DNA of 63,987 bases, filler included, from Reclinomonas americana ATCC 50394 (GCA_048213135.1; 11 parts of 11 records of this genome joined end to end with filler, not necessarily neighbours in it); one strand, 5' to 3'. Shown: positions 9,042 through 63,987, counted from the first letter of the whole stretch. Numbers and translations are program-made. Notes: generated by a model not told the origin, from the sequence alone.

Positions 9042-9141
9042 NNNNNNNNNNNNNNNNNNNNNNNNNNNNNNNNNNNNNNNNNNNNTTAATTAATTAANNN
9101 NNNNNNNNNNNNNNNNNNNNNNNNNNNNNNNNNNNNNNNNN
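9042..9141. other. Artificial 100-nt linker (N44-TTAATTAATTAA-N44), first of ten
   Basis: Identical linkers occur at 9042-9141, 19402-19501, 27502-27601, 29938-30037, 34523-34622, 37332-37431, 45246-45345, 57271-57370, 60026-60125 and 61860-61959. The core places stop codons in all six frames. Confidence 0.98.
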
Positions 9142-18712: not shown

Positions 18713-19791
18713 TCAAATGGCCGGTGCAAGCAGCTGCTCCTGCACGTATCGATCGTCTTCTGTTGGCGTGAGATAGAGATCGTGAATTCGGGAAATCTCC
18801 TCGGCCACTTGCGGGTACGAGTCGGCCAGCTCGCGGCAGAACTGTCGCATCCTGTCTTGACGTTCTCTCTACACACGCGCGGAGACAGCAAGTTAGCAAC
18901 GAGTAGCTTTTCCGGCGTGGAAAAGATACAGGAAAAATCGCGCAACTGTTCGTTCCAACTCGCGATCCAGCTGCGCCTCTGGTGTCTTGTACTCGTAGGC
19001 ACCCTCGTCGGCCTGGCGCACCAGCTCGGCCACCTTTTGCGATCGTGACTTGGCATCAATGATGCGTGTCCTCTGTTCACGTGTGTGTCAGTCTGGGAGG
19101 CAGGAAGAGACAAAGAGGTGTTTTTGTTTGTTTTTCTTGTTACGTACCAGCGCCTGCACCTCCATCAACTCGTGTCGCTCGCGCTTGCTCTCGGTGCGCA
19201 GCTGATCCACCTCCTTGGCACGCTCACGCATGCGCACGCCGAGTTCGCGCTGCAGTCTGTAGCCCTCACGAATGTCTGCGCGCAACAAAGAGCACAGACC
19301 GTCAGCATTCTCATCAAGCACACACACATGGAGGGCGACACGAGCAAACCTTGATCGTACTTGGCCGCCTCCGACTGCACTCTTTGCAGCTCGGCTGTAC
19401 GNNNNNNNNNNNNNNNNNNNNNNNNNNNNNNNNNNNNNNNNNNNNTTAATTAATTAANNNNNNNNNNNNNNNNNNNNNNNNNNNNNNNNNNNNNNNNNNN
19501 NACGAGTGCCGACCAGTCGCTTGAGATCCTCACTCTACGCAAGTCGTTCAAAATCAATCAGACACTCTCGCTCACTCACGAGAGAGAGAGAGACAGAAAC
19601 ACGCACCTTCTCGCGTGCATCAAGCACCACGCGATCAATCTCCTCATTGAGATGACTCTCAATCGACTTTTGCACCCTCTCGGGGAACATCTGTGTGTGT
19701 CGCGCAAACATGAGTACCTTCGCGAGAGACAGAGTGTGTGTGTGAGTGTGCGCACCGCGAAGGGATGATCATCGTCGTCTGAGTCGCCCAT
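18713..19791 (-). CDS. Coiled-coil protein of unknown function spanning the 19402-19501 gap
   Basis: Starts MGDSDDDDHPFA at 19791. ...LKRLVGTR|gap|RTAELQRVQSE is in frame. Ends ...QEQLLAPAI* at 18713. Confidence 0.55.
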
Positions 19792-19938
19792 GATTAATGA
19801 TTGCGCGTCACAACTGCTGACCGCGAGCCACGCACAGTGCATTGCATCTGTCCCACATCGCCTTCGCGCGCTTTTTCGTGTGTTTCCATTGTTCCGCGCG
19901 CGTTCGTGCCTGTGTTTGAGTGCCAAGCGAACCTCATC

Positions 19939-22428
19939 ATGGGCCTCGTCAAAGCACTGGTGTGGCTCATCATTCTGGGCGTGACTGCGTTGCTGGGAGT
20001 GTCGACGTACTTTGCGCTCACAGCCTCGCCCCCTGCGTACAACACAGTTGAGTGTGTGTGTGTGTGCCCCCCCCCTTGCCTCATAGTGTCTGCTCTCTCC
20101 ATGTGTGCGTGCGTGCGCGTGTGTGTGCGTGCGTGTGTGTGTGTGTCATGTCTGAGACATGCTTGCACAGGCGGTGTCGCAGCGCTCACTGTCGGCGCCG
20201 TTGGATGGACTCGACAGTCGGCAACTGGCGGAGCGACTGGCCAAGGCGTGCTCGTTTGAGGTGCGTGCTGCATGATCGGATTTGCAGGAAAACGAAGTTG
20301 AGGTGTGATGGTGATGATGATGGTTAACGTGTTGCACAGACGGACAGCTCGGCGCCGGGGCCGGAGCTGGACGCCAAGTTCGACAGTCTCTTGCAGTGGA
20401 TCAAGGAGGCGTTTCCGCTGGTGCATCAGACGCTGCAGCGTGAGTTGCCGCTGCGCGGCAAGCACTCGATGATTTACAAGTGGAACAGCATTCGTGGAGG
20501 TCGTTTTTTCAAGTTGTCTTGTCTCACGTTGCACCTGTGTGTGGTCGTGGTGGCTCACGTTGTTGCTGTGGCTTGCGCAGCTGGCAAGAAGCCGGTGCTG
20601 CTCATTGCGCACTTGGACACTGTCGCGGTGGCCAGCGAGACGCTGCATCAGTGGGAGGGCTCGCCGCGTGGCGAGGTGAAGAATGGCAAGGTGTACGGAC
20701 GCGGTGCGTTGTTTTCGCCTCTCTTCCTCTTCGTCGCGCCCCCACTCACATTCGTCTTCGCGCAGGCACGCTGGACGATCTCGGCAGCGCCATTGGTCTG
20801 CTGGAGGCCGTCGAGCACCTGCTGTACCGCTCGCCAAACTTCGATCCGGCTCGCACCATCTACCTCGCCTTTGGTCACGACGAGGAGGTGAATGGCTCCG
20901 GAGCCAAGGAGATGGCCGACTTGTTCGCGTCGCGCGGCATCGAGTTTGAGGTTTGCCTGTTCCGCCATCCACAACCATGTTCCCCGCCCATGATCTCACT
21001 CCGCGTGTAGCTCGTGCTGGACGAGGGTGGTGCGGTGTCTACCGATGGGTTCCCTGGCGTCAGCCAGCCGATTGCAGTGGTCTCGTTCACGGAAAAGGGA
21101 TTCGTCACGGTCGCAGTGTCGGTGGTCACCGAGGGCGGTCACTCGGCCCAACCGCAGGCGGTGACCACCATCGACATGTTGGCCACGGCTGTGCGTGCGG
21201 TGCGCGGTGATCAGTTCCCGTCGACGGTGCATCCGTTGATGGAGCAGCTCCTCTCCACGGTCGCTATGGTGTCGTCGCTGCCGAAGCGTGTCATTATGGG
21301 CAATCTGTGGTGGACTGACCCGCTCGTGCGTGGCATGTTGGCCAAGAACAAGTTGCGTGTGCCTGTCAACTCGCTGGTGGACGACGCCCTGGTTGCGACT
21401 CACGCGCGCGGAAAAAATCGTGCACAGTGTGTTGAACGCCATGATCCGCACCACTTGTGTGCCGGTGCAGATCCAGAGTGGCTTCGCGTACAACGTGGTG
21501 CCGCAGACGGGCAAGGTGATTTTCAACTGCCGTCCCATTCCGGGAGAGACCATCAAGTCGACTCTGGCACACATTCGTCACAGCCTCGACCGCTACGGTC
21601 TCACCTCCGCCACTGTGGAGCTGGTGCCGGAGAGTTGCGAGATGTTGACTCCTTATTCCTTTTCATTTTGGGTCCCGTGACTCACCAGATTGAGTTGCAG
21701 GCATGAGCAACGACCCGCCGGCGACGTCGCCCGTGGACTCGCCAGCATTCCTCTATCTGGCGGGCCAGATTCGCTCGCAGTTCTCGGATGCACTTGTCGT
21801 GCCGTCGTTCACTGTGGGCGCCACCGATGCCCGCTCCTACCACAAGGTCTGCGCCAATGTGTTCCGCTTCATGCCGGCCAAGCTCTCCAGCGCCGACCTC
21901 AAGCTGATGCACTCGTTGCGTGTGGCGACTGTGTGTTCGACTCGTGTGTGTGTGTGTCGCTGAAACTCACAGCTCTCGTGCAGAGCCAATGAGCACATTG
22001 ACATTGAGAATTACACCGGCCAGGTGCGCTTCTATGTGCGCTTCATGCACAGCCTCGAAGAGCTGCAGAACAGCCCGAGCCTCGCCGAGCGCAAGGCCGA
22101 GAACGAGGCCAAGCTGCGAGCGGCTGTTGCTCCTCCGCCACCGCCGCCACCACCTCCTCCACCACCACCACCAGTGCAGCAGCAATACGAGCGCTATCAG
22201 CCTCCGACTCCGCCACCACCACCGCCACCGCCACCGCCACCACCACCAGTGGCAGAGCCGGAGCCGGAGCCGGAGCCAGAGTCAGTGCCAGAGCCGGTGC
22301 CAGAGGTCGAGCCTGAGCCCGAATGGCCGCAAGCACAAGAGCAGCAGTGGCAGCCGGAGCAGCACTACGATCCCACACAGCAACACCAGCAGTACGAGCA
22401 GATGCATGCGCCTACGGACGAACTCTGA
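19939..22428 (+). CDS. M20 family metallopeptidase (carboxypeptidase S/PM20D1-like) with N-terminal signal anchor and Pro/Glu-rich tail
   Basis: Motifs LLIAHLDTV, GRGTLDD, FGHDEE, LDEGG, EKG, GGHS, NVVP, GATDAR, MHSANEHI. Hydrophobic N-terminus. Confidence 0.92.
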
Positions 22429-22475
22429 GCTGTGCATGCAGTGCGTGACAGAAGTGAACCGCGCGAGGTGCATTA

Positions 22476-23431
22476 TTATTTCTTCTTCCACATGAGATGA
22501 GCGCGATCCATGTCCTTGGCGAGAATGGCGTACACCCACATATCGTCGAGTTGCGATCCGATATAGTACGCCTCGCGATGAATGCCCTCCAACAGGCATC
22601 CGACGCGCTGCAACAAACAACAGCAAGCAGCATGAGGCTTCATAAAACGGAACACAGAAATAGACCCCACATGCACGGAACCGTGGCGACGCCCTTTGAC
22701 TTGTGATTATCGCAGTGAATCTGCACACGGGGGCGGCGGCGGCAACTGAGCGATGCACGAACAACGGCACAGAGAGGGAGAAAGGGCAAAGCACCTCAAA
22801 CACCAGGCGATTGAGCGACACCTCCGGCAACAGCGGCGCCGGTGTTCCATCGTCATCGCCCACACAATCGACCGCCTGCAGCTCACTGCGACGCCCAAAC
22901 GCCAGCTGGACCATGCACTGCACGGCACGCGTGGCCAGCCCACGGCCCACACAATCCGTACGCAGCCAGTAGCCAACAAACGCGCTGCGATTGAGCGGAC
23001 TGATGGAGAAGAAGGCCACTGCGCCCAGCACTCGGCCTCCAACCGCCGCCGACCCACTGCCACCTCCAACCTCCTCCTGATCACCCTCAATGATCACGTA
23101 CGTGTATGCAGTGCCTGCTGCTCGTCCATCTGTGGCGCGTTTCACCCATGCAAGACCCGACTCTTCTCCTGCGTGTGCGCGTGTCAGCGATGCAAAGGGG
23201 ATAAGAGAAGTACACAAAGCGCCTGCGCAAACCGTTAAAGGTGGCAGCCCACGTGATCCACCGTTGCATTTGCTCCTTGGAGAACATGATGCTCTCAGTG
23301 ACGCGCGCAAGATGTCGCTGCATGACGGGTTCCAGTCGCACACCGCAGTCTTCCAGCTGTGCTCCCACAGTAAGTACACATCTCTCTCACTCCCCAACAG
23401 CAACAGCAAGACGCACCTTGATCGCCGACAT
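22476..23431 (-). CDS. GNAT N-acetyltransferase, RimJ/RimL family
   Basis: Spliced product contains AFVGYWLRTDCVGRGLATRAV..LAF..LNRLVFEIHCDNHKSKGVATRVGCLLEGIHREAYYIG..DDMWVYAIL. Confidence 0.85.
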
Positions 23432-23522
23432 TCGTACGCAAAAACGAGCTTTCGTCCACCCAATGACCTCTCCGATCACACTCCGCTCTCGTTCTTTGTG
23501 TCAGTGTGAGCACGCGCAAACC

Positions 23523-23891
23523 ATGAAGTTGCACTTTGGTGGAGGCGCAGCGATTGAGGTTCAACTGAGGGAAGCCGACGAGCCGCTCTTGTCGCTTTGC
23601 GCGCGCGCGTTGCGTGTGGATCCGACCTCGGCTGCCGCGCAGTCCTTGGCGCGCATGCAGTTGACACACTCTGGTCTCTGCGCGCGCGTGTGTGCGTGGG
23701 AGAGAGAGCGAGCGAGTTGGAGAGAGCTCACATGTGTTCTGTGTTCAGGCACATCGTGGACTGTGGGTCAGAGCACGGTGCGACAGGCGGCGCTCACCGA
23801 AGACTCGCAAGTGTGGCTGTCGATGCCGCCACGACCGGCCTCGGCTGCTGCCTCTGATGAGTCGTTGCGACGATCAGTGTCTGAGTCAACG

Positions 23892-23931
<40 letters not shown>

Positions 23932-24612
23932 CGACAACGACAGATGAGGTTGTTCGTCGCTTGCAGGCCAGTGCCTTGTCGTCGCCGACGCGAGAGGATC
24001 GTGTGTCGGCGGTGGAGCAGGGCGTGATGACGCAGATGGAGAGTGAGGCGCAGGGTTCGGGTGCGGCGGCTGGAGGATCGTGTGCCGACGATGGCGACGT
24101 GCAGAGACCGCTGATCATGGAGTTGTCCCCGGATGCGTGTCTCACTGAGGGTTTGTGTCTGTTGTTATTGCTGTTGGTTGGTTAGGTGGCTGGCTGGTTG
24201 GTGTGTGCTGATGGGCGTGGGAGCAGGTGGAGTGCGGGTGCGGATCATTGGCGAGAACTTGCGCATGTCGCCGGCCGATCGCATCAGCATTCGGTTCGGG
24301 CAGCTGCTGGTGATGCCGCGAGCGGCGCAGGCGCACGAGATAGAGTGCGTGGCTCCGTCGCACCCACCAGGGCCTGTGTTTGTGGAGGTGCGTGTGGGGG
24401 TGTGGTAGTGTGTATGTGTCGAAAGATTGTGTAAACGTGAGCGACCGCAGGTCTCCCGCGACGGTGGAGTCACGTGGAGCAACAGCAAAAACATCTTCAC
24501 CTTCTACACCAGGAACCAAGTCGAGGATCTTGTGGCAGTACCCACCGAGCGTCGCATGGCCGACAAGAATGTCACCAAGACCGAGAGTCTCATGCACGAG
24601 TTTGTCAGCTGA
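23523..24612 (+). CDS. IPT/TIG domain protein with poly-Thr tract and possible ubiquitin-like N-terminus
   Basis: PLIMELSPD..GGVRVRIIGENL..IRFG..IECVAPSHPPGPVFVEVSRDGGVTWSN..FTFY is an IPT/TIG pattern. Confidence 0.75.
23889..23942 (+). repeat. (ACA)n coding microsatellite, poly-Thr
   Basis: Run of aca/acg triplets in frame within the IPT/TIG gene. Confidence 0.9.
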
Positions 24613-24694
24613 TCGTGTACGTTTGTTTTTGTTTGCTGCCGCGGAATGCAAGTCGTAAGTGTATCGACATTATGTGTTATTACTACTGCTACTG

Positions 24695-27471
24695 CTATCT
24701 TCGGCGGTCTCTCCGACCCACCCCCACTGCACCGAGCAGCGAGTCGTCGACCGAGGCCGCTCTGACCAGTTGCGGGGCGCCACGATGCATGTCGGCCAGG
24801 TAGCGGAGGGTGGCACGATCGGCGTCGCCAAACAGCGACACATCCTCCTCCGAGACACGCCGTCGATTGCGTGTGTTTGCGGCCGCCGGGGACATTATCG
24901 TTACCACAGGCTCTGCAGTGCTGTTGACGCTTCCGTTTGCTGAGCGCGACGGCGACACTGGCTGCGCCACCACGCGTCGGCGTCGTTCGCCAGCCCATCG
25001 TCGCGACTTGCAAGGCAATCGTGCGATTAGCATTGTTGACTGAGGGAGCATTGCAAGCGAGAAAAAAAGACACCGACCTGTGGACTCTGCAACACGGTGG
25101 TGGCATTGGAGGCGGTGGTCGCCGGCGTGGTCACCGAGGGCGACCGCACATCGGCAAACTCGCTCTCCATGTCACGCTGCTGAATCTCAAGGCGCTCCAA
25201 GATGCCCTCCACACGGCGCAGTCGATCCGAACCGGCCAGTGACCTCGACGATTCGCGCAGAGAGGCGTCGGGTGCTCGCTCACCGATCCCACCACCCGCT
25301 GGAGTCCCGGCAGCTGCGGTTGCAGGTGTGGAGGCAGCGCTCAGCTCGAACACCGACAACTCGCTGCGGTCCTCTGTTTCACGCGCTGTGGTCGTGGTGA
25401 GCATGATAGAGATATCCAAAAGCTCAGGCATCCACTCCAGTGCCAACTCACCAACGGCACTACGTCCGCCCGTCGCAATCGTCTGCATCTGCTCGTCCCA
25501 CAGACGTGCCAGCTCCGAGTAATCACGCTCAAAACTGCTGGCGTGCTGCGGTGGCGCATGTGTTGCCGTCGACGCAGCGCCGCTGGTGATTGTCGACGCG
25601 GTGTTGGTAGCCGTAGCAGAAGCAGCAGCAGCAGCAGCTGAAGCGGCGACGCGAGTTGTCGCAGTGGGAGCAGTTCTCGGTCGAACGCGGTCAGGCTGTG
25701 GAGGCGCGCTTCCGGGTTTGGTAATCTGCTGTCGGACCTCTGCGCCACGTGCAGCACACTCTGTGAGCGCAGACGAAACAAACGACGGGAACAAGCCACC
25801 CGAAACTCGTGTTGGCCTCCTTCAGAGTCCTCTTGGCCACCTCACTGCGTTGATTCGACTGCTGCAACACCTTATGCTCGAGCTTCGCCACATACTTGTC
25901 CTTTTGCGCCAGTACCTCGCGCTGCTTGGTGTTTTCGGTGAGGAGGAACTGAATGCGCCGTGCCGCACCGAGAAGTCGCTGTGCAGCCTCTGCCGCCGCC
26001 CGCCTGCTCTGGAGACCGAGGGCACGCATACGCTCCTCGAGCACACGACATCGATCACGGCTCTCCCTGTTGCCAGTGCTCCGTGTTAGCGGGAGACTGA
26101 TTGTTTTGTACAAAGGGAGAGAGCAAGCGGCGCAACTGTAAGGCGAGTTCCTTTCGCCGCAATTCCTCCAGCAGCTGGCGGTTCTCGCGATCACGATTCT
26201 CGGCCGCAGCAATGGCTGCCGGTGGTGGCACATCCGAGAGGCTGTCACGCGTCGTTTTAGCAACTATAGAGGAGAAAGATAGAACGAAGATGGCGACTGG
26301 CGTGTACGCAACAACTCGCGAGGCGGCTGCGATCGGTGCACCATGCTGGGTGTGATCTCGCGCACGGCGAGTTCATTCAGCTTGCGTTCCACCGGAAAGA
26401 CGACGTTGCTGACGTGCGACTCGAGCTTTGCCGTGGCGACCTCACTCAGCACCATGGTCTCCAGTTGTTGTCTGCGCTTCTCCTGCAAGGAAACGCGGTC
26501 GGACAACTCACGGGTGAGAGAGAAGGAAACAACAAGCGATAGTTACCGATTCCTGCAACCGCGTTCGCAGATGCGTGACATCCTCTTCTGTGGCACGCAA
26601 ACGAATCGCCAAGTCCGCATTCTCGTCGACCAGTCGTTGTACGTACTCACTGCAATCGAGGCACGTGAGTCTCATCGCTCAAACACTGAGCACGAAGCAC
26701 GACCGACGCAACAAGGTCTTCGCAGCCTCATCGGCCTGCGCCTGTTGCGACTCGCTCCACTGCGTCTCCAGTGACGCACAGTACTGCCGCAACTCGGCGT
26801 GCTCTCGCTCGAGAGCCACCAGCATCTCGCGCTGCGCTCGCATGCGACGATCCACATCCTGCACGACAAAATCAGTCACTTCATCTCTCGCCCTCCGACC
26901 GGCCTCCGCACACCTTCTCGTGCACAACGGCCTCGGCGACCTGCACACCATGCTCCTCCACCTGCCTTTGCATGGCTCGCTGCACGCGTTCGCTCGTCGT
27001 GAACAGCTCATCCACCTGCTTCGCCACCGAGTGCTCCCGATCTGCCACAGTCACACGACGCGAGATCAGACTCCCCCCGGTGCATCACCAAGTCGCTTCC
27101 AGCTCAGCACATACTCAACAGTGTCGCTTGGCCTGCTCGTGCAGCGCCTGCTCCAGGTTCTCCATCTCGTCGCGCTCCAAATGCGCCATCCGCAAGATCT
27201 CTCGCTGTTCGTGTAACGGCAATGCTGCGAGATACGACGACGACGACGATGCCAATGTGGCGGTGGCGGAGGCGAGCGATGATGGCAGCGGTCGTCCTGC
27301 TGTTGAAGATGAAGAGGAGGAGGAGGAGCGACGAGGAAGGATGTCTTGTTCGACTTCACTGCCACTCTCCTCGTCGCCGCCATCAAAGGACTTTGGGTGG
27401 CGCGCGGCCACACGCACTGTCACAGGGTCGTCGGCAAAGACAGCGCGTCGCGTGCGCCCTGCTCCACTCAT
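24695..27471 (-). CDS. Coiled-coil protein of unknown function (multi-exon)
   Basis: Starts MSGAGRTRRAVF. Heptad-rich exons (e.g. IQFLLTENTKQREVLAQKDKYVAKLEHK) are separated by GT-AG introns. Confidence 0.6.
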
Positions 27472-27673
27472 CTCTATGATCTTGTTGGTTTTCCCGCCAA
27501 TNNNNNNNNNNNNNNNNNNNNNNNNNNNNNNNNNNNNNNNNNNNNTTAATTAATTAANNNNNNNNNNNNNNNNNNNNNNNNNNNNNNNNNNNNNNNNNNN
27601 NGCTTCCACACACAGCGCACTGCTTCCTCCTTTGCCTCTCTGTCTCTCTCTCTCTCACTCAACCATCGCGCAG

Positions 27674-29639: not shown

Positions 29640-30037
29640 TCAACGAAAGCGGTGTGTCCGAGTTGTCACACACACACGCAGTTGTCCGTCTGCGACTGTC
29701 GAAGGCACGTACGATCTGGACGCTGGCAGCAGGCGACAATACCAACTACTTCTTTTACAACAACAACCATCATTAATAATCATCATACTCGTCCGCGACT
29801 CATCTTCGCAACGCGCCGACGCTTGCCGAATTCCACGGTCCCAACATGACGGCGGACCGTGTGGGATAGCCACCGGCCGGGCCGTACGCCATCGAGCCAC
29901 TGGGTCGCATACCACCGATTTGCAGCGGCACGTAATGNNNNNNNNNNNNNNNNNNNNNNNNNNNNNNNNNNNNNNNNNNNNTTAATTAATTAANNNNNNN
30001 NNNNNNNNNNNNNNNNNNNNNNNNNNNNNNNNNNNNN

Positions 30038-34522: not shown

Positions 34523-34763
34523 NNNNNNNNNNNNNNNNNNNNNNNNNNNNNNNNNNNNNNNNNNNNTTAATTAATTAANNNNNNNNNNNNNNNNNNNNNN
34601 NNNNNNNNNNNNNNNNNNNNNNCCCCTCCTTCTCTCGCGCCCCACACAAGAACCAGCATCCATCACACACTGCGCGCATCCATCTCTGTGCGCCTGCTTT
34701 CGCTGCTGCACACGACGCATCTACTCTCTCTCTCTCTCTCTCTCTCTCCGTTTGCTCTCTCAC

Positions 34764-37331: not shown

Positions 37332-37508
37332 NNNNNNNNNNNNNNNNNNNNNNNNNNNNNNNNNNNNNNNNNNNNTTAATTAATTAANNNNNNNNNNNNN
37401 NNNNNNNNNNNNNNNNNNNNNNNNNNNNNNNACGCAACAACACAGAGAGAGAGAGACAGAGTGAGTTACTGCTGCATACACCGGGGTTGCGCGGCGTCGT
37501 CAGCAAAC

Positions 37509-43100: not shown

Positions 43101-46100
43101 GACGCCAAACAGACTGTAACGCGGGCGCTGCACCACTTTGGACGCGATCAGGAGAAAATCACCAGGGAACTAGCGTCGCGTTCTGTGGGAATGGAGGCGA
43201 TGCAGAGCGAGCTGAGCAATGCCAAGAGGTTGCTGGTGAGAACGGGGATGTACATTGGCAAGTGTTGCGTGCAGTATTGCCACTCACGCAAGTGCGTAAT
43301 GGACACAGGCGGAGACTCGTGAGCAACTGGAGAGCACGGAGACGGCAAGAAAAACACTCGAGGGACGAGTCCGTCGCCTCACCAACGAGCTGGCCAAGGA
43401 CAGTGAAGACGAGTCGGAGCTCACACGCATGAGCACTCGCGTGGACGAGTGCAGCAAGTCGCTCTTGCGCATTGCCTCCATTCTCAATCTCTCGCGAGAC
43501 GTGCAGGTGTGTTTGTGTGTTTGTATGTTTTTCGTTGCGGTGTGCCGCCAAGTGGATCACTTACCGTTACTGCTCGGTGTGGCACAGGATGGTCTGAGGA
43601 GGCCACGCAGCACGCAGTTTGGCACAGTGCTGGTCAAGTTCGAGGAGGCCGTCAAGTCGACACTCCGAGCACAGCAGGCCGAGCACACCAGTCAGGTGAC
43701 TGTGGTTTTCGTCTGGCGAAAGAAGCAAGTGTTTTCGTTTGCTCACCGACACGTGCAGCGACAACTGACGGCCATGGAGCGCAACAATCAGATCCTTCAG
43801 CAGGAACTCGAGAAATTGCGCGAAGAATTGGAGAGCGCCAAGAGACGCTACAAGCGTGCGGCTGCCGAGCGCACGGAATTCGGTGCGTTGGTGAAGACAC
43901 CTGCGTGTTACCATTCGGACGACTCACTGATTTGTGATGCGATGCACGAACAGAGCACCTCTTGACATCGGCGCGCGCAGAGTACGAGAACAGCCTCGCT
44001 GCTGCCCTCAAGGAAAAGGATTTACTAAAGGAGGTTGCAAAGGAGGAGGTGAGCGCCGATTGTGTGAGGATGGAAGTGCCAAAGGCAGCTGTGTTCATGT
44101 GTTATTTCTTTACCGAGCAGATTTTGCGCCCGTACCAAAAGGAACTGCGCTCACTGCGACACGAAGTCGAGGTGCTTGAAAAAGCATACCGCGACGAAGT
44201 GGCCGTCGGCGCCGCCCGCCGTTCGAGTGCCAGCGAAGAGCGAAAGGTTGACGAGGTGCGCGCGAGGTACCGCCGACGCATCGACAACATGTCGAAAGAC
44301 CTGGAGGCCGCGAAGGAGAGGGTATGTGGCTTGCGTGTAACCACACACGCACAGTCGAGCTGATTTCGTCTCGCAGATACACGAGCTGACTGGGGAGCGC
44401 GATCGCCTGCTGGGCGAGCTGGAAGTTGCCAAGGCTAGCATTGATCGCAAGGAGTTGGAGATTGAGCAGCGGAAGCGCGACTTGGATGACATTGCGAGGA
44501 GACGCAGCCGCATGTCGAGCCGCGACGATGGTGTGTGTGTGTGTGTGTGTGTGTGTTGTCTCTATCTGTAGCCTTGTGACATGCAGCCTCACCATCCCTC
44601 GTGCGCATGCAGTGTACGACGAACTGCGCAAGAGTCTGCGCGACCGCGACAAGCAACTGAACGAGGAGCGGCGGCAAAAGTCGCAGCTGCTCAGCCATGT
44701 GACCGAGAAGGACGAAGAGATTCAGCAACTGCAACTGTTGATGGAGCAATCGTACAGCAAGGTGGCCGAGGAGGGCATTGAGACGGCGCGCAAGCTGGAA
44801 GAGGAAACCAAGCGCCTCAAGCACCACCTCTCCAAGGTAATCATGCTCTCTGCCACCGCTCGCATCACCTTTATGGACTGTGCACCCGTTGCTCACTTGC
44901 TCTATTCCACCACAGTCAACGGGAAGTCGGCGCGCCAGCACTGGCACGGCCATGCTTGACTCGGAACACCCGTTCTCTCCCAAGCACGGCGCTGGTCCCT
45001 CGGCAGCCACTGAAAAGCGGCATGTGTCGTCGTCGTCGTCGTCGGTCAGTGCGCGACGATCTCGCTCGTCGGCCATTCTCGGATCGGGATCCACAGCTGC
45101 GCCGCTGAGCAAGGACGATTTGAGCAGCTCGCTGATGGTGACGCGTCATGCCACGGCTCCGGCGCTGACTCGCAGCCGCTCCGTGTCGCCGTCCTCGTCG
45201 TTGGGCCTGTCGAAGACGCACTCGGCGCGCTCCGTGTCGACACGGNNNNNNNNNNNNNNNNNNNNNNNNNNNNNNNNNNNNNNNNNNNNTTAATTAATTA
45301 ANNNNNNNNNNNNNNNNNNNNNNNNNNNNNNNNNNNNNNNNNNNNCCTGCCGTGGTTCCGCGATCACCGCGTCGTGAGGCGTCGTCCGCGTCGGTGGCGG
45401 CCTCGGTCAAGTCGCCAGGCCGTGAACGATCGTCGTCTTCGCTTCGCTCACTCGCACCAGCGCCCGACCGCACCACGTCGTCGGCGTCGGTCGCAAAGCG
45501 CGAGGCGTCCTCGCCCCGTCGTGAGCACTCGTCAGCGTCGATTCGGAGCGATTCGTCGCGCTCTCCACGCCGTGAACGTTCCTCGTCTTCGCTGAAGCAC
45601 GAGTCGCCTCGGCGCGAGCGCTCGTCCAGCTCGTTGCAGCGCGAGACGTCGTCACGATCGGCCGATCGCGACCAGTCACAACTGTCAGTACGGAGCGGCG
45701 AGTCGTCGCACTCACCACGACGTGAGCGTTCCTCCAGCTCGCTGCAGCACGAGTCGCCGCGTCGTGAGCGTTCAGCGTCGTCGCCACCGGTGTCGCCGCG
45801 GAGAGAGCGTTCTTCCGCCTCGCTCAAGCGTGAATCGTCGTCAGTGTCGCCACGCCGCGAGCGATCGTCATCGTCGCTGAAGCCCGCCGCCGCCGAGTCT
45901 TCGCCGCGGTCGCCTCGACGAGAGCACTCGTCGGCCTCGGTGAAGGACGTGTCGCCGCGCAGGGAGCGGTCGTCGTCGTCCATTGCTCGCGAGTTGTCAC
46001 CTCGTCGTGAGCGCTCGTCATCGTCGCTGAAAGACGCGCCATCGCCTCGACGTGAACGCTCGTCGTCGTCGCTAAAGGTGGACGAGTCGTTGGCACGGTC

Positions 46101-47653
46101 ACCTCGTCGTGAACACTCGTCGTTGTCGGTGCGCAGTGCGAAATCATCGTCGTCTGTGGTGGATCACAGTCGCGACCGCCGGTCATCCACCACCTCTGCA
46201 CACGATGTGGAGGACGAGCCGCCACCGGAGCCGCAGTCGTTTCGCGGAAGTCCTCGAAAGCTCTCGACGGATCAACCGCGCCTCGTCTCTCGCCATCGGC
46301 AGCAGCACTCGGTGGGCGACGAGCCATTAGCTGGCATGTTTGGGTCGGACTACTCGAGTGGTTGGAGGAGTACTCGGCGCGGCACGGTGGCATCGATGAG
46401 TACCGTGCAAGCGTCGGTCGCCTCGCTGCCGACCATCACCACCGAGCACAGCGACTCGACATCGCAAGCCACTAGCGCACGCTCGACGCCGACCATGTCG
46501 GTGACGGCGGCTGCACTTGCCGGCGGCGTCGCCCCCATGTCTGCGGCATTCTCACGACACAACAGCACCACTCCTGACTCGGCCTCTCCTCGCGACTCGG
46601 GTGTCTCGCCTCGTGCCACCGAGGTGGCGTCACAGAGCTCGGCGGCGACACGACTGACCATGGCCGATCTCGACTTGCACCGCTCGTTCTCGAACGATCG
46701 ACTGCACGAGCTGGGCAGTGTGGGAGGCAGTCGGCAGGCACTCCCGGAGAGCCACCGCGGTCATCAGCACCATCACCATCATCAGTTCCACCGACATGAA
46801 GTTGTGCGATTGTTTTCTTTCACCATCGAGAGAGCGAAGAGAAGAACTCACGCGTAGGTTTGCTTGTTGTTCGCAGGATGCTGGTCGGCCATTGTCGGCG
46901 TCGGGTGCATCACATGCGGCCTCGATGCCCGCCAGTGTGGCTACCGGCACGCCGTCAATGCACTCGCCGCTTCGGGCCATCACAGAGGGCGCTCTCGAGT
47001 CGGACAGGCGACACTCGACCAGCAGGCGTTCGCTGGCCGCCGGAGCCGATGGCACGACACTGGGCAAGCCCGCTGCCCCCCGCTCTCAGCAACAGTTGCA
47101 GTCGCAGGGGCGGAGCGAGCGTGCTCTGCGACGCGCTGCACGCGGACCGTTGGCCGACATTGGTCAGGCTGACGCGTACCTTTCCGACAACTCGGTGACG
47201 CCCTCGGAGCTGCTCGTGCGCGAGATCTGGGAGGAGAGCTCGGTCGGCGTGGAGAACATTACGAAGCACCTGTCTGGCGACTCGGTCGGTCGCATCATGC
47301 ACACCATTCATCCCGAGGACGACACCACCTCAGTGTCGCGGTCATCGCGCTCCAGCAGCCGCATTACGACCGCAAGGAGTGCGGCCACGGGCAGCAGCAG
47401 CCGGCAGCTGAGCGCCCGCCTTGATCCGGCATCCATCACACCGAGTCTGTCCCCGCGCAGCCTGGGCACCTCCAGTGTTGGTTCCTCGTCGTCGCTGAAG
47501 CGGCGGCCGTCGTCGCGTCAGTCAGGCACCCTCACGCCATCCACGCTGTCGCACGACACCTACTCGAAGACCAGCAGTCGGTCGCACATCCCCTCGTCGG
47601 TGCCGGTCTCCGATGAACGGCGCCCCTTGTCGGCGCCACCCGACCGCTTCTAA
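40137..47653 (+). CDS. Very large coiled-coil protein with Ser/Arg-rich repetitive C-terminus, spanning the 45246-45345 gap
   Basis: Many heptad-rich exons. ...SVSTR|gap|PAVVPRSPRRE joins in frame. Ends ...SAPPDRF* at 47653. Confidence 0.65.
45361..46125 (+). repeat. Coding tandem peptide repeat SPRRE(R/H)SSSS
   Basis: 13 SPRRE copies plus one SPGRE variant, with variable spacers and divergent codons. Confidence 0.85.
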
Positions 47654-55928: not shown

Positions 55929-57270
55929 ATGGCGTCTCCACCACCACCGCCCTTCGTGCACCCGCAGCTATCACCGCTTCCCTCGGCATCATCACCACCA
56001 CCTCTGTCACCTTCACCACTGTCCGCAGAATCTCCATCCTCGCACACAGTCACCACTCATCACCACCACCACCATCACCATCATCACCACACTGACGGCG
56101 ACGACGATGACCCGTTTGTGCGCATTCCACTGTACTCTCTCAACGGCAGCTCTACGGCACCATACGGCGACGCAGTCGATGGACACTTCCACGCTGATGA
56201 TGATGATGATGGCAGTGATGAGGAGGATGTGCATCGACGAGGCAGGGGGTCGCGTGTGCCACTGATGAGGAGAGAGGAGAGCGATGTGACGATGCCACGC
56301 AGCAATGCGGTGGTGTCGGCCACCAGCAACAGTGCAGCGGCGGGCGTGGTGCATCGCAGCGATAGCACTGGTGGTGGTGGTGGTGGCAATGGCGAGTGGC
56401 CAGCCAGTGTGCAGCATGGGCGCTACATTGGCAACGGTGCCAGCTACAGCACGTCGAGTTGGAGTGTCAGCAGCACGGCGCGGAGGGCTGGCGAGTCGCA
56501 GATGTGAGTGTACCCTTGCCAAGTCGCTTACAACTCCCTTTTCTCTGACAGGCACTCTCTCTGTTTGTGGCAGGATGCGTGAGGCTGGAAGACAGATGGG
56601 TGCGTGATCTGCTTGTCATCCTCCACCGACGGTGACTGACGTGGTTGGTGTGGTGGCAGACCTGTTTGGACGACTGGGCTTTTGGGTGTCGCACTCGTAC
56701 TGTTTGATTGTGCTGCTCACGGTGTCGTACTCGCCGCTGCGCGAGGCCATCACCAAGCACAACGACTACTGGCCACTGCTCATCCAGCTCGTTCTGTTCG
56801 GCCTGACCATGTACTTTCACATTTCCTGCTCGCTGAATCGAAGGCCATACAACAACGAAGGTGGGCGCGTGTCACGCGTGTGGTGGCTCTGTTTCCCTCA
56901 CTCAACACTTCGTGCGAGTGCAGAGCTGGCCGAGTTGGACGTGGATCCGGAGGATGGTGCGTGTTCTCGATGCGAGGCGCCGAAACCGATGCGTGCCAAG
57001 CACTGCCGCATGTGCGGCCATTGTGTTCCACGATACGACCGTTGCGATGTTGTCGTACATGCCACACGCCAGCAACACAATCTCTCACATTGGTTCCGGT
57101 GCAGATCACTGCCCCATTGTCGGCAACTGCGTCAGTGAGCGAAATCACATGCTGTTTGTCGGCTTGCTGTTTGTGGAGATCTTCCAGGCACCGTACACGT
57201 GCTACGAGGTGCGCCATCGACACTTTCGCGTGGTGGCCTTTGGTTTGTGTTTTTCACCAGTGGCGCATGC
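55929..57270 (+). CDS. DHHC palmitoyltransferase (3'-partial)
   Basis: [41 protein letters not shown] after removing intron 57041-57104. TM helices upstream. Confidence 0.93.
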
Positions 57271-57553
57271 NNNNNNNNNNNNNNNNNNNNNNNNNNNNNN
57301 NNNNNNNNNNNNNNTTAATTAATTAANNNNNNNNNNNNNNNNNNNNNNNNNNNNNNNNNNNNNNNNNNNNGAGAGAGAGAGAGATGGGAAGGTCGAAGAA
57401 GAGAAAGAAAAGAGAGAAGAGAGAAAAGGAGAACAAGAACACGAAGAGAAGAGAAAACTTACCACACAGTTTATTTCTGTAGAAACAACGAGTGAGTCGG
57501 ACTTGCAGCAACAAGAGAAGAAAGTGCAGCTGTGACGCAACATGAGTTTGGGC

Positions 57554-60025
57554 TTACTCCTTGGAAAATGAGTTCAAGGGCCTCTTGGGCCGCTTGTTTG
57601 AGTTGGATCGGCACTTACTCGCCGATTGCGACCGTCCAGGTATACGTACAGATGGGGCACTCGAACCCTCACTGCGAACGAAGGGAGACAACAATGAGGA
57701 CAGCCTCAACACAAAAGAGCACAATGCATGGGAGGGATCACATCCAGTGGCACGCACGGTTGCTGTTGGTGCTCGACAAGTGTTCCTGCAGGTCGCGATG
57801 CAGATTGCAATTGAGCTCGACCAGTTCGAGCTGCAATCCTGGCCGATTGCCTCATCCCTGCGGGCGGTGACGGCTCCACGACCTGCGCGAACACGTGTTG
57901 GAATGTACAAGAGAGGAATGAGAGCATTGAGAAGAGTACCTCCTCCTCCTCCCCCCCCTTCCACTCTCCGTCCTCCTCCTCCTCCTCCTCCACCACCTCC
58001 TCCTTCTTGTTCTTCTTCTTCTTCTTGGTCTTCTCCGACGTCGACTTCTTGGCCCGCTTCTTCTTCGGCTCTGTCTCCTCCTCATCCTCCTCGCCCACCG
58101 TTGATCGGGGACGCTTGCAATTGGCGGGCAACTGCAGCGGCACACTCTGCAGCACCAAGCCGCTCAACAGAATGTTCCACGCACCACGAGCGTCACGGAA
58201 CACCGTTTTGCCTTCCAGCGGGCACCCCTCAGTGTTGCACACGATCGTCTTGTCGCTCCCCACCTTCTTCCCTGTTCCGCAACCCGGGCAGTGCATAGTC
58301 GATCCCGCCTCCGAGAGTGATAGCACCAACAGCTCAACGAACGACGCATCCTGTTGAGATAGCACTCTCGTCTTGGCAGCCTGTGCACACACACCGGGAG
58401 AGAGGGAGAGAGAGAGAGAGAGTGAGACAGTGAGAAATCAAGGCAATTTCCGATCGGTCTGTTGATTTACGTACGCACCAACGCTTCCGCCAGCTTCTTC
58501 ACCACGCCAAAGCCAGAGTACTGCATCTTCAGCACAGTGTCGCGTCCGATGCATCTGTCCTGCCACTCTTTGCGATAGTCGACCCACTGCCGTTTCTGCA
58601 TCATGTGCGCCATCTCCTTTGAAAATGGTGGCAGGATGAGAACCGCGTTGACAATGGCCGCCCTGCGTGGTTGACAGGCGCAGGTGAATGAGACACCACC
58701 GCTTGCAATCACCACACCATGCTCATGCACTCACTTGCGCACAAAGGAGACTGCGTTGTTGTACGCAGCGGCCTGCAATCGACGAGTGATGTTCGCCAGT
58801 CGCCGCTCAATCAACTTGCGTGCACGCGCGTCCACAATGCGACCATACGACGCAAGCTTCCGCTGCAGCACGGACTTTTGCTGGAGTAGCGGGAAAATGA
58901 CACGTGCCGCCCAATCCTTTCCATGCTCGTCGATCGCCCAGTTCACGCCAGCACCTGTGCGCGTGACATGGCGTGAGAAATGGTGGAGAACGGGGAGGGG
59001 GAGGGAGGGAGGGGACAGGCCAAGGGGAAAGGAGATGAGGAGAGAACAGCATGAAGAAGAAGAAGAAGAGAGGAGAAGAGGGAAGAAATGATCGATGCCA
59101 TGAGAAGAAACGGAACGGAGGTAAGGCAAGGGAAGAGAGTAGGAGAGGAGAAAAGTGATGAGCGGCGGAGTTAGCAACAAGAAGAGAAAGATGAAGAAGA
59201 GATGAGAGAGATAGAAAGAGAACAGAAAGAGAAAGAAAGCGTATTAATAGATGCATATGAGAGAGAGTAAGGAGAGATGAAATGAGAAAAGGGGAGGAGA
59301 GGAGTGAACGATGAGAGGAAATGAAGAGAGGAAAAAGGACGTCATTCATGCAGTCAATCCTGATACACGTACACACGCAAGAGAGCATGAAACCACTCTG
59401 GTACACACTCCCACATCCACTTTTGCCTCCCTGCCTCATGAGAACAACATACCAACGGTTGCCACTGTGGCGAATCTCCGCACACCATAGTCAACGCCCG
59501 ACGCACAGAGCGTGAGTGCCTTCCAGATCGCTGAACCCACGTCGCACGCTCGATGGCTACCGCCGCACCGGTGAGGCGGCGATCCACACACCAAACACCG
59601 CGATACGTTGCCTTTTGCGTCGACAAAAAACGCAAAGCACATTTCATCGCTGTCAGATGCATCGGCCTCCACCGCCGGCTCCGCATCGCCGCCACCTCCA
59701 CTTCCACTTCCACTTCCACTGCCCTGGTCGTCTCCACCTCCACCTCCACCTCCACCTCCTGCACCACCACCGCTGTGAATGTCGGGTGGTTTCGCGCGCC
59801 TCCGTTTGCGACATCGTCCCTTGTGGCGTGCACGCCGCCGCACTTTCGGCTGTGCTGCGTTCATCGACGAGCGGAGATTCGCCAGCACAGAAAGAAGTGT
59901 TCGCCGGGCCTTTCGCGATTCTGCACGCATGCATCAGCACATCTGATCAGTGAAACAAGTTGTCCCACACGCAGCCAAAGTCAAGCTCACCATGTATTCG
60001 CTGCTGCCGTCGCGCAGCATAGTAA
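57554..60025 (-). CDS. Fanzor (eukaryotic TnpB-like) RuvC nuclease domain, Fanzor2-like, intron-containing, open at the 5' gap
   Basis: Exons 60025-59991, 59920-59453, 58954-58735, 58662-58479, 58380-57940, 57882-57758 and 57671-57554 splice in frame. Motifs: RuvC-I GVDYGVRRFAT, a long basic helix, ILPPF, LSEAGSTMHCPGCG, CNTEGC, and RuvC-III FRDARGAWNIL. Confidence 0.82.
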
Positions 60026-60125
60026 NNNNNNNNNNNNNNNNNNNNNNNNNNNNNNNNNNNNNNNNNNNNTTAATTAATTAANNNNNNNNNNNNNNNNNNN
60101 NNNNNNNNNNNNNNNNNNNNNNNNN

Positions 60126-60379
60126 TGCTGCTTCCACGTAAGCTGATCGCCGCGACGGGGGGCATCTGGATATGACGAGGCATGGGCGCAGCCACTTGCA
60201 AAGGCGACACCGACGTCACCGCCACCGGCACCGCGTCGATCGGCCTCTGTGCGCGGAACTTGGACGAACCGCGTCGCGCAGTCGAGGATGCCACCGACCA
60301 AGTGTGCCATGGCGCCGATTGCATCGCCGGCGACTGTGCACACCCATGCAACACGACATGAGTTTCGCAACAGAGAGAT

Positions 60380-60416
<37 letters not shown>

Positions 60417-61766
60417 TGGTCACCTTCGCCGAGAATCCCATCGGCATCCATTGCCACGCCATCGTGCATCTTGTCAGTGCGACCCCACATTAGAAGCGTA
60501 GAACGTTCACTCTCGATCGCGAGGGCATCTGTAATCGCGGCATTGGATGAGCACAGAGACAGAGGGGAGGGAGAGCGAGAGAGAGGACATGGAGAAGGAC
60601 AAAATGACAACAAGAGTGTGGGGGAGAGAAAGAGAGAGAAAGAGAGAGAGCGCAACTGTTGATCCTGGTTGTTGTGGAGTTATACTCCTCAAGATGAATA
60701 ACGGCAGTTTTGATCGCCGCAAACGACCGCAGGTCCCAGCGATGGGGATTGCGTTCCAGCAATGTCCGCATCCGCTCGGGCTCCAACGCAGCCTTCCGCA
60801 GCGCCAGATCCAACAACCGAAAACTGTCGCGCTCACCGTCGTCGCTGTCGAAACGGAACGGCAACTCGCCGAGTTGTGATTGGAGCACGTTGACCGGTAC
60901 GGTGGACAACACGCCCACGATGCGATGCATTGCGCCGATGATGGTTGTTGACGATGCGAGGAACCCTGCTGGAATCGCTTGTCGCAGCTGCGCGACAGCA
61001 AACTGAACCGGCCACGACTCCGCTGCCCTCGGCACCTGTTGCGACGAACTGGCGGCCGAGGTTGCGGCACCCCGTTCATCGCCATCGTCCGCCTCCATCT
61101 CCTCGGTTGCGCGATTAGCTGCCCAGGACCGGTACCGCAATTCCTCGACAAGAATGCGGACGGCCTCGTCGACGACGTTGCGCGCGTATTGGAGAACCGT
61201 GGCATGGTATGCCGACACACGGGCGCGACACGAAGTTGCAGCAGGCGACTGGCCCTTCTGTGCGTCTCGCATCGCACACGCCATGTCCAGACGGTAGGTG
61301 TTCCACTCTCGCACTACGATGTCGTAATGAGAGGAGAACGACGATCTGCTGAGTTGCTCCAGAACATCGCGATGATCGTCACTCGCGCCCTCCTGGATCA
61401 CTTCTGTCGCCAACGCACGCGCACACGCCAGCACCTTGTAGGTGACAAGCAGGGGGTCCTGCAGCAGCGCCGTCGAATTGTGTTCACAGAAGCCGGACCG
61501 TCCAAGTGCATCCAGCGTCACCAAGTATTGCTGCACCGTCCACTCAGCAGCCTCCGGATGTGAGCGCGGCAACAGGTGCTCGCGAACAACCGGGTTCCAC
61601 AGTGGCGAGTCGTTCAGCTCAAGAGTGGACGGCGGCGAGCCCGGCGGCCGCTCTCGCAATTCACGCTCCAAGGCCGAAGCAACGGGAGTGGCCTGTGCCA
61701 GTGGTATCGCTTGTTTCTCGACAGATTCTGCGCATGGGCGTGAGTCGACGACAGCCAAAAAATATC
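60126..61766 (-). CDS. Internal exons of an unknown protein, probably the upstream part of the Fanzor-like gene
   Basis: Exons 61766-60657, 60528-60424 and 60333-60126 splice in frame with no stop and run open into the gap. Confidence 0.65.
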
Positions 61767-61783
61767 CTGCACTACGAAAGAAT

Positions 61784-61784
<1 letters not shown>

Positions 61785-61859
<75 letters not shown>
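61785..61859. repeat. (CA)n microsatellite at the assembly break, intronic
   Basis: Pure CA run that continues on the other side of the linker (61960-61970). Confidence 0.95.
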
Positions 61860-61978
61860 NNNNNNNNNNNNNNNNNNNNNNNNNNNNNNNNNNNNNNNNN
61901 NNNTTAATTAATTAANNNNNNNNNNNNNNNNNNNNNNNNNNNNNNNNNNNNNNNNNNNNCACACACACACATACACAC

Positions 61979-63987
61979 CTCGCTCAAACTGGTACGTGCT
62001 GTCCTCCAACGCATTCTGCAGGGCCAACGAAAGCGACTGCACAACGGCGCTAGTTGCCCGACGCACACCGCCATGTTCAACCAGCATTCGGAAGGCATCG
62101 TCGCCCTCGCCAAGCAGCCAAGCGCGGGCAGAGTGAAGTAAATCACAGAAGGTCTTCACATTGCCACCAAGGCAATCGTCGGCACTGTGCTGAGCATCTG
62201 TGGCTGCAACACCGGGTGAGCGAACATCATGAAAACCACGTGCACAATTAATGCTTGCACTGCAGGGCGACCACGCACCCCAGAATGATGAAGAGAATGT
62301 GCTCATCACGCTCAGTTGCAGTGTGAGGAATGCATGCGCTACGCGTCGCCGGGACAAGTGATGCTGCTCGTTACGTCGGTGCTCGTCTCCATAGATCGTG
62401 GCCACGTGCGCCAACACTTCCATGAAATCGCACTCGATGAATCGTAGCAGCTCGAAGACGTTACAGCTAGCGCTGATTGAGGAGTCCGCAGCTGAATGTG
62501 TGTGCGCCTGAGCGTGATCAGGATTGCCGGCTCCGCTTGCTGAGGAAGAGAGAGAGAAAATGAAACAAAGAGTGAGACAAGAGGATTGGTTCAATCGCCT
62601 CGAGGTGTGAGCAGATGAAGCAGAACGAGTGAGGGGACAGATCTGGAGTAGGACAGTGTGACAGAATATGATGAGGGAGAGAGAAAAAGACAATGGCGGG
62701 AACGAGAGACGGCATGAGGGAAAGAGGGAAAGTGGGAGAAACCAGAACAGAACAGAGAGAGACAGTACTAGTGCGCAACAGTTGTGAAGAGACTCGGACT
62801 GATAGAAGGAGAAAGAGAGAGGAACAGAGAGACAAGGGGAACGGAGGGAGACATGAGAGACAGTATGCCAGACAGAGAGAGAACGAAGGAGAGTGCGTGG
62901 GACAAATGGAGACAGATGACAGAGAGAGTGAGATGAGTGACAGTGGACTTGTGTGTGCTGGAGAGAGAAAGAAGTAGGAAACAAGTGGGGCGTGCGACAA
63001 ATAGGAGAGCAAAAGAGATAGAAATAGGAAACAAGGGAGACATTGTGAGAGACAGTGTGTGAGAGATGAGAGAAAGAAAGAAGGAAGAGAGAGAGGGGGC
63101 CGGCAGTAGCAGTAGACAAAAATCAGTGTGAGAAAGTCTGTGTGCGATAATTGAAGAACAGGAGAGAGAGAGAGACACGGGCGTGAGACCGAGGGATAAA
63201 GTGATGAATCGAAGAAGCCGACAATGACGAGAGAGAAAAAAGGACAGTACGACATTCGAGTGAAGGAAAAAGAGGGAGACAGCTGCAGAGTGACAAACGA
63301 GAGAAAGAGCAAAAACAATGCCCATGCCACTGCTCACCAGCGCCGGCAATGGTAATCAACGAGCGCAAGTCCGCCAGGGCCTGTGCCAACGACGAGGGTC
63401 GACGGCGACAATCGCCGTCACCAATGTGTGCGCCACCAAGCTCCATGTTTCGCAGCTCCCGAACGTGACTCCACTCAGACGAAGCGTCAGCCAAGCGTTT
63501 GGCGACCTCCGCCAAGCACAGTGTCCGCCCGTCGAACTGCACCGCCAGCTGTGGAACCGTGGCCGGTCCGTCGAGAAAATCGCAGGGCAGAAGAAGAGAG
63601 AGCGCTCTCAGGTCGGCGTCATGGAGTTGTTGAGTCAGCGCAAGCGCACGTGCCATGCCATACAGTTCCTGCATGTGCATATCGATCCGCCGTCGCAGAG
63701 CGTCCTCATAGTTGATGATGAGTAGAACTGGCGGAGTCATCCCTCCGCCGTCGGCCTGCGATCCACCAGCGAGATCGTGGAGCAACTCTGCATACAAGCG
63801 CAGTACGTATACACAAGTGAGACCACAGAAACAATTACATGTAAAACAAACAATTGCAAATTTAAACGCACCCGGCGAGAGCGCGCTGCGCAGCCCAGCG
63901 CAAAACTGAATGACCTTGCCGAGCACAAGGGCACACCGGCCATCCAATTCCGCGCTGTGCTCAAGCATCGGAGGCTGCCGCTTCCCG
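61979..63987 (-). CDS. Exons of an unknown protein, open to the window end, probably the same gene as 60126-61766
   Basis: Exons 63987-63872, 63787-63338 and 62539-61979, all with phase-1 junctions. Includes a 798-nt CT-rich intron at 62540-63337. Confidence 0.6.

Follow-up and report, generated by a model that had tools for sequence, protein, structure and literature searches.

The DNA analysed here is a window of 63,987 nucleotides (nt), meaning the whole stretch from Reclinomonas americana ATCC 50394 with its fillers included, and three contigs at its end appear to carry one long, intron-rich gene of the Fanzor1 type. Judged from the sequence, this gene would encode at least 1,351 amino acids (aa), with an N-terminus beyond the window; one gene is the simplest reading, and we give it a probability of about 0.55. 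The C-terminal ~370 residues are predicted to make up a RuvC nuclease of the TnpB/Fanzor kind, into which a C4 zinc ribbon is inserted; a Lys-rich, nuclear-localisation-like tail would follow. Both RuvC-I (Asp980) and the full TnpB/Fanzor motif are located within these last ~370 residues.

The window is composed of 11 contigs, split by ten identical spacers of the form N44-TTAATTAATTAA-N44, which contain stops in all six frames. Because these linkers are artificial and of uniform length, the real gap sizes are not readable from them. Long open reading frames (ORFs) elsewhere in the window contain ordinary eukaryotic domains, including CAP-Gly, ankyrin, SWEET, peptidase M20, GNAT, NIP7, WD40, TPR, Mog1, and DHHC, which on sequence grounds marks the window as nuclear DNA of a G+C-rich eukaryote. 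The linkers and the three contigs that carry the gene are as follows.

9042-9141, 19402-19501, 27502-27601, 29938-30037, and 34523-34622: artificial linkers, 100 nt each
37332-37431, 45246-45345, 57271-57370, 60026-60125, and 61860-61959: the remaining artificial linkers, also 100 nt each
57371-60025, 60126-61859, and 61960-63987: the three gene-bearing contigs, of 2,655 nt, 1,734 nt, and at least 2,028 nt

The minus-strand gene model was built by hand from three-frame translations and then checked by script. It comprises twelve exon segments and nine GT-AG introns within the contigs; a tenth intron, consisting of (GT)n, holds the 61860 linker, and the 60026 linker interrupts one exon. A direct join of the segments yields 4,054 nt and 1,351 stop-free codons, and the model closes with the first in-frame stop (57706-57708). 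At the window end the frame remains open, and hence the true N-terminus is situated outside the window. A first-pass annotation of this DNA had described same-strand, stop-free exon chains on the upstream pieces, and such chains, separated by GT...AG introns, are indeed present on the minus strand of all three pieces. Its giant protein of at least ~1,380 aa is borne out as far as the 1,351 codons of the direct join, with continuity at 60026 unproven. Similarly, its RuvC-I position near residue 1,000 agrees with Asp980, and its totals of 4,141 nt and 11 introns, with an additional 3' splice to 57554, stand beside 4,054 nt and ten introns in the present model. The features of the model are listed below in the order of transcription, with a slash at each splice boundary.

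63872-63987, minus strand: exon 1 (partial), donor CGCCGG/GTGCGT, model residues 1-39
63338-63787, minus strand: exon 2 (~150 codons), with no recognisable family and modelled as helical by AlphaFold2 (AF2; predicted local distance difference test, pLDDT, 50.4)
62540-63337, minus strand: C+T-rich intron of 798 nt (C+T 0.77), GTGAGC...CTCAG
62279-62539, minus strand: exon 3
61979-62203, minus strand: exon 4, ending ...YQFER-G/GTGTGT
61767-61978, minus strand: (GT)n intron with the linker 61860-61959 inside, acceptor GTAGTGCAG/GA
60657-61766, minus strand: exon 5 (369 whole codons in 1,110 nt), orphan in sequence and with helices predicted throughout
60424-60528, minus strand: exon 6
60126-60333, minus strand: exon 7, open to the contig edge, ...GDQLTWKQ-CA
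60026-60125, no strand: artificial linker N44-TTAATTAATTAA-N44, the critical join
59991-60025, minus strand: exon 8 fragment (T-YYAARRQQRIH), donor ATG/GTGAGC
59453-59920, minus strand: exon 9, with a basic stretch, a Gly/Ser run, the strand 'FFVDAKGNVS', and RuvC-I with Asp980 (59490-59492)
59685-59774, minus strand: Gly/Ser low-complexity run in exon 9, residues 886-915
58955-59452, minus strand: C+T-rich intron of 498 nt, within the RuvC domain
58735-58954, minus strand: exon 10, helical, linking RuvC-I to RuvC-II and aligned in register with the Fanzor1 profile
58479-58662, minus strand: exon 11, the RuvC-II region, with no Glu in the candidate strands DTVLKMQ and YSGFG
57709-58380, minus strand: exon 12, followed by the stop 57706-57708, with Glu1151 (58309-58311), S1154-T1155, the C4 zinc ribbon (C1158-C1180), RuvC-III with R-D1190 (58192-58194), a Lys-rich tail resembling a nuclear-localisation signal (residues 1232-1253), and an acidic tail

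Coding-type composition is found in every exon, the G+C content at codon positions 1 and 3 (GC1 and GC3) exceeding that at position 2 (GC2), a pattern also shown by long ORFs in other parts of the window. Donors of the GTGAGC/GTGCGT kind and acceptors of the (C/G)CAG type are common to the introns, and the 798-nt intron of the upstream part is of the same style as the 498-nt intron that interrupts the RuvC domain. This community of codon composition and intron style between the upstream part and the Fanzor part speaks for one gene. These two introns are also unusually long and consist mostly of C+T-rich simple sequence; the other introns measure 70-128 nt.

In the RuvC half, the evidence begins with the motif of the TnpB/Fanzor superfamily, D-X(125,275)-[TS][TS]-X-X-C4-X(5,50)-RD (Bao & Jurka 2013, PMC3627910). 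The model contains the motif as Asp980, 173 residues, S1154-T1155, four Cys between 1158 and 1180, and R1189-D1190. When the window is translated in six frames, the core of the motif occurs once among 127,970 residues; none of 20,000 shuffles contains it. Two independent profile libraries land on the same stretch, that expected of the TnpB C-terminus: PF07282 (Pfam) matches the exon 12 stretch with E=0.0084 (16.7 bits against a cut-off of 26.3), and NF040570, 'RNA-guided endonuclease TnpB family' (NCBIfam), with E=0.0024 over profile positions 341-387 of 389 (17.2 bits against a cut-off of 100). On PF07282, bona fide viral Fanzor1 proteins themselves score just 21-35 bits.

As a yardstick, giant-virus Fanzor1 genes were collected by a degenerate DNA pattern, giving 38 loci. 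Twelve full-length viral Fanzor1 ORFs constitute the alignment A1, with which 507 homologues were recovered, 120 of them listed; after removal of 3 outside 550-720 aa, the 117 left were clustered at 65% identity into 37 representatives. Five proteins unrelated to Fanzor (P0001-P0005) were excluded before profile building. By hhalign, columns 408-634 of the 37-representative profile are placed on residues 997-1221 (E=0.015) in the register DE..TS..C..C...RD..N..NIL. The score is 30.0, the 52 shuffles reaching at most 24.0 with a mean of 15.0; the match is a weak one. A tentative assignment to Fanzor1 as against Fanzor2 is made from the layout.

The putative catalytic residues are Asp980, Glu1151 (the 'rearranged' Glu), and Asp1190. 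In Fanzors, the canonical RuvC-II Glu is replaced by Pro or Gly, and an alternative conserved Glu is located downstream, adjoining the [TS][TS] pair (Jiang et al. 2023), a placement also stated generally in PMC10530073; the rearranged Glu corresponds to E536 of SPu-1-1p (PMC3627910) and E541 of SpuFz1 (PMC10432273). Glu1151 is situated three residues before S1154-T1155, matching the DE[FY]xTS motif in rows of Data S1 of PMC10530073, and hhalign aligns it likewise. For the RuvC-II strand, whose placement is uncertain, hhalign favours DTVLKMQ and the spacing favours YSGFG; both are devoid of Glu, as expected of a Fanzor. A third candidate picked by eye, LILPPF, found no support in the profile alignment. 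The Lys-rich stretch of residues 1232-1253 resembles a nuclear localisation signal, and such signals are common in Fanzors (PMC10530073). On these features, the RuvC half is a divergent, apparently intact nuclease domain of the Fanzor type. Relatives of the last Fanzor exon were found neither among 1,020 candidates nor behind 50 pattern matches in viral contigs. Five metagenome loci considered for this exon were set aside: L001 and L002, which were inspected, encode bacterial proteins merely starting MHCPGCG, and L003-L005 were treated alike, their 26-residue match being the same in extent and identity.

The Fanzor contig cannot hold the whole gene. Its frame runs via a 70-nt intron (GTGAGC...TGCAG) into an 11-codon fragment that is open at the contig edge, and only ~155 residues precede RuvC-I on this contig, 30 of them belonging to the Gly/Ser run, compared with 382 in SpuFz1; thus, the coding sequence must continue upstream. 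On the neighbouring contig, a same-strand exon is open right up to its edge. The 60126 edge, on the upstream side, ends W-K-Q-'CA', and the 60025 edge, on the downstream side, starts 'T'-Y-Y-A, 11 codons before the GTGAGC donor. The first-pass annotation had read these edges in the same way, with the warning that a direct join falls in frame one time in three by chance; from them, we infer continuity across 60026-60125.

At the other join, (GT)n/(CA)n repeats flank the 61860 linker on both edges, and FER-G-YFL reads across it. Placement of this gap in a (CA)n intron with phase-matched ends, as earlier proposed, holds for the repeat and for FER-G-YFL; the phase match is uninformative, since within (GT)n every second nucleotide starts a GT donor, which makes donors available in all three phases. 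The same microsatellite on both edges supports the adjacency, order, and orientation of the contigs, and it is plausible that the two flanking contigs are adjacent.

The upstream ~980 residues are without detectable relatives in the searches made. No credible family was found on the seven upstream exons in Pfam, NCBIfam, or PHROGs, and the 369-residue exon has no sequence match in the PDB at E<=10. The best PHROGs match overall, of a Gly-rich stretch to a virion protein, is not credible. PDB searches with four exons of the model gave low-complexity or chance matches only. Searches of Pfam, NCBIfam, PHROGs, and the PDB gave no sign of a transposase, recombinase, or helicase in the N-terminal part, and lend no support to the suggested fusion to a transposase. 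Among 1.84 billion representatives, searched exhaustively with HMMER, five matched exon 5 at E<=0.001, all of them repeat proteins matching by chance, in which a stretch of 31-33 residues is matched many times (Flg_new repeats or MpPF26); the pairwise BLASTP alignments of two of the five, P0001 and P0002, were inspected. Exon 5 gave no relatives among 7,999 candidates in a word-index search of longer proteins, nor among 66 pattern matches in metagenome contigs. Within the window, neither internal repeats in the N-terminal part nor a second copy of the gene was found, and a paralogue of the same layout, recommended as a check, is likewise absent there.

Single-sequence AF2 models contain helices throughout, with pLDDT 43.1 for exon 5 (369 residues) and 50.4 for exon 2 (149 residues). 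Because such values are too low for matches to be meaningful, no fold search was run, and the structure prediction advised by the first-pass annotation proved unusable for fold comparison. Some resemblances had been noticed by eye. One is at residue 701, where 'AIKTAV...RINN' was likened to the Fanzor1 N-terminal strand; here 'AIKTAVIHLEEYNSTTTRINN' (60600-60720, minus strand, residues 701-725), set against the conserved viral Fanzor1 strand-helix 'IKTSLKSI...IN', is paired with it by hhalign at a chance-level score. The other, 'QFAVAQLRQAIPAGF', was likened to the motif 'LFQ..PLR..IP.Y' and is also paired by hhalign, at chance level only. Owing to these chance-level scores, the two by-eye resemblances are not evidence; if that of 'AIKTAVIHLEEYNSTTTRINN' were real, the start of the Fanzor core would fall on the upstream contig. 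On the viral side, PF26935.1 is precomputed on all 120 listed Fanzor1 homologues (P0006-P0125, of loci L007-L042), and a Pfam scan of three viral ORFs behind A1 reports PF07282 and not PF26935; PF26935 may cover the Fanzor1 N-terminal lobe.

Two small public runs yielded one 485-nt contig that matches 60974-61458, wholly inside exon 5 and reaching no contig edge. It has 8 differences from the window and a word depth of 4.9, in a 2012 run of 26 million letters. This depth is high for so small a run, the kind of which is only guessed as DNA, and the 60974-61458 stretch of exon 5 may be repeated in the genome or expressed.

Long proteins of this group have been published. Additional file 1 of Bao & Jurka 2013 (PMC3627910) lists 23 Fanzor rows, out of 111, of 1,010-1,827 aa and up to 16 exons, many of these families having 7-16 exons. 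These rows are ROr-4, PBl-3, MCi-2A to 2D, MCi-3 to MCi-10, DFa-1 to DFa-4, PPa-1, PPa-4, PPa-5, PPa-6, and PPa-7; among them, PPa-4 has 1,827 aa and 14 exons, PPa-5 has 1,388 aa and 12 exons, and PPa-6 has 1,218 aa and 13 exons. In the printed sequences of these three (Additional file 3), the RuvC-I Asp, located by eye through a hydrophobic strand and DP[GAS], is near 975, 873, and 877, and the DEYNTS and NRD motifs are at the far C-terminal end. The architecture called undescribed by the first-pass annotation is accordingly not new, since long multi-exon Fanzor1 proteins have been listed since 2013; and its premise that TnpB and Fanzor2 proteins have only a few hundred residues omits the relevant group, the published Fanzor1 proteins of 1,000-1,800 aa. 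The existence of published multi-exon Fanzor1 proteins with ~870-975 residues before RuvC-I also counts in favour of one gene. Fanzor N-terminal halves are described as highly variable (PMC3627910), the mean Fanzor size is given as 620 residues, and extra domains are noted in some Fanzors (PMC10530073). Data S1 of PMC10530073 includes entries of 1,036 and 1,686 characters, of which at least the former looks like a fused gene prediction. Six short peptides of the model are absent from the first 400 characters of each Data S1 entry and from Additional files 1-3 of PMC3627910, and no account of long Fanzor1 N-terminal regions was found in a limited search of the literature.

The closest layouts are those of PPa-4, PPa-5, and PPa-6, Sola2-type Fanzors of Polysphondylium pallidum, which also exceed 1,200 aa, have many exons, and carry a C-terminal D...[TS][TS]xxC4...RD block. 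Ahead of the RuvC-I Asp they have ~870-975 family-specific residues, comparable with Asp980 here, a likeness by length and layout. However, they lie within defined Sola2 elements with terminal inverted repeats and target-site duplications in 2-3 copies, and RuvC-I and the alternative Glu are 171 residues apart here and, by our own reading of the printed sequence, ~417 in PPa-5. SpuFz1 of Spizellomyces punctatus (638 aa; cryo-electron microscopy, Saito et al. 2023, PMC10432273) has the triad D383/E541/D606, to be compared with D980/E1151/D1190, an Asp-to-Glu spacing of 158 against 171, and a CCCC zinc finger in the NUC/TNB part common to both proteins. In contrast, SpuFz1 is a single ORF in which 382 residues precede RuvC-I and a WED/REC lobe can be recognised, and none of the ~980 residues before RuvC-I here is matched to WED/REC.

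In the case of the Helitron2-type CRe-2 and CRe-3 of Chlamydomonas reinhardtii (906 and 967 aa, 10 exons, supported by expressed sequence tags; PMC3627910), the likeness lies in intron-rich Fanzor1 genes, a G+C-rich nuclear genome, and a length well over the 620-residue mean; they differ in being shorter, in occurring in >100 copies, and in often being 5'-truncated. The giant-virus Fanzor1 proteins (about 604-638 aa; loci L007-L042) share the RuvC half in register (0/52 shuffles scoring as high) and match, as here, only positions 16-60 of PF07282, but their N-terminal 360 residues (WED/REC) have no above-chance counterpart in this protein.

Several results weigh against a single gene. A direct in-frame join at 60026 has a chance expectation of one in three, and the real gap length behind the 60026-60125 linker is not given by the assembly; a protein of over 1,000 aa from one gene presupposes that this linker conceals no stop codon. 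The two small public runs contain no read, contig, or transcript bridging 60026-60125 or 61860-61959. All profile matches on the RuvC half are under the curated cut-offs, and a HMMER profile built from the 37 viral representatives detects nothing anywhere on the model. None of the Fanzor profiles tried connects the N-terminal part with Fanzor. For the 369-residue exon, comparison with A1, a narrower alignment of 12 sequences, gives E=0.74; residues 691-960 score 14.7 against the 37-representative profile, a value reached by 24 of 52 shuffles, which lends no support to the proposed expanded recognition lobe. The N-terminal miss is weak evidence, because the profile derives from one A+T-rich viral clade. 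Two transcription units are a possible if doubtful arrangement: an orphan gene (63987-60126) would end in the gap and a separate Fanzor gene would start there. It is similarly doubtful, to about the same degree, that this Fanzor would be of normal size with its WED/REC exons in the gap, or a 5'-truncated transposon copy, and that the continuous frame would be a joining artefact. The one-in-three join, a linker whose length is not the real gap size, and upstream exons unlike any Fanzor profile tested or anything else searched are all compatible with two units, as are the 620-residue mean (PMC10530073) and the frequent 5' truncation of Chlamydomonas Fanzor1 elements (PMC3627910, section 8). However, the gap would then have to hold a gene end, an intergenic region, a promoter, and at least ~230 Fanzor codons with introns, an estimated >1.5 kb. 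Open frames on the same strand reach both contig edges, the unusual long C+T-rich introns and the codon composition are shared across the linker, and before the REC-like helix the Fanzor contig offers no in-frame start with an upstream stop.

It is improbable that the contigs are not neighbours at all and represent pieces of different loci, perhaps of different copies of a repeated element. Linkers identical at all ten joins would allow such a chimera, as would a stretch broken into short contigs in the way assemblers treat repeats, and the 485-nt contig (8 differences from 60974-61458, depth 4.9) might represent a second copy. Yet the (GT)n on both 61860 edges fits one broken microsatellite, and the coding sequence of all three pieces lies on the minus strand, in an order that suits one gene. 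Furthermore, same-strand frames meet in phase at other linkers: open plus-strand frames join in phase 0/0 across 19402 and 45246, as the first-pass annotation had stated, with Ser-rich sequence on both sides of the latter, and frames are in phase also at 29938.

If the contigs do carry one long Fanzor1, its upstream ~980 residues might comprise a WED/REC guide-and-target-binding lobe diverged beyond recognition, together with a lineage-specific, largely helical extension; such an N-terminus would fit the 'highly variable N-terminal halves' of long Fanzor1 proteins in dictyostelids and Mucorales. By analogy with characterised Fanzors, the protein may work as a transposon-linked, RNA-guided DNA endonuclease. 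A domesticated Fanzor seems a long shot: here, a single-copy, intron-rich gene of host style would have captured the RuvC/zinc-ribbon part as its C-terminal domain. Equally far-fetched at present is its corollary, a 700-980-residue helical N-terminus unrelated to WED/REC that would provide protein-based targeting or scaffolding in place of an RNA-guided transposon nuclease. Should the join of the long Fanzor1 gene hold, the locus would be one more very long, intron-rich Fanzor1 and would carry giant N-terminal regions beyond dictyostelids and Mucorales; as things stand, it adds little, the layout having been published in 2013, the join being unverified, and the N-terminus having no detectable relatives. 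A well-assembled, expressed long Fanzor would give a handle on the role of the extra residues. To our knowledge, solved and tested Fanzors are all compact, about 480-640 aa, and we know of no work that shows a role for the extra 500-1,000 residues of long ones.

Elsewhere in the window, Ser/Arg-rich open frames at 44841-45245 (135 codons) and 45346-46854 (503 codons), plus strand, are in phase across the 45246 linker; no Pfam family was found on either, and together they are consistent with one low-complexity gene crossing this linker. The contig 19502-27501 is exactly 8,000 nt long. A DHHC palmitoyltransferase gene (56950-57268, plus strand) enters the 57271 linker, with Pfam positions 5-34 and 35-66 of 133 in two frames; its 3' part was looked for past this linker and not found. 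This gene converges on the 3' end of the Fanzor gene, and an AATAAA is located on the minus strand at 57470-57475.

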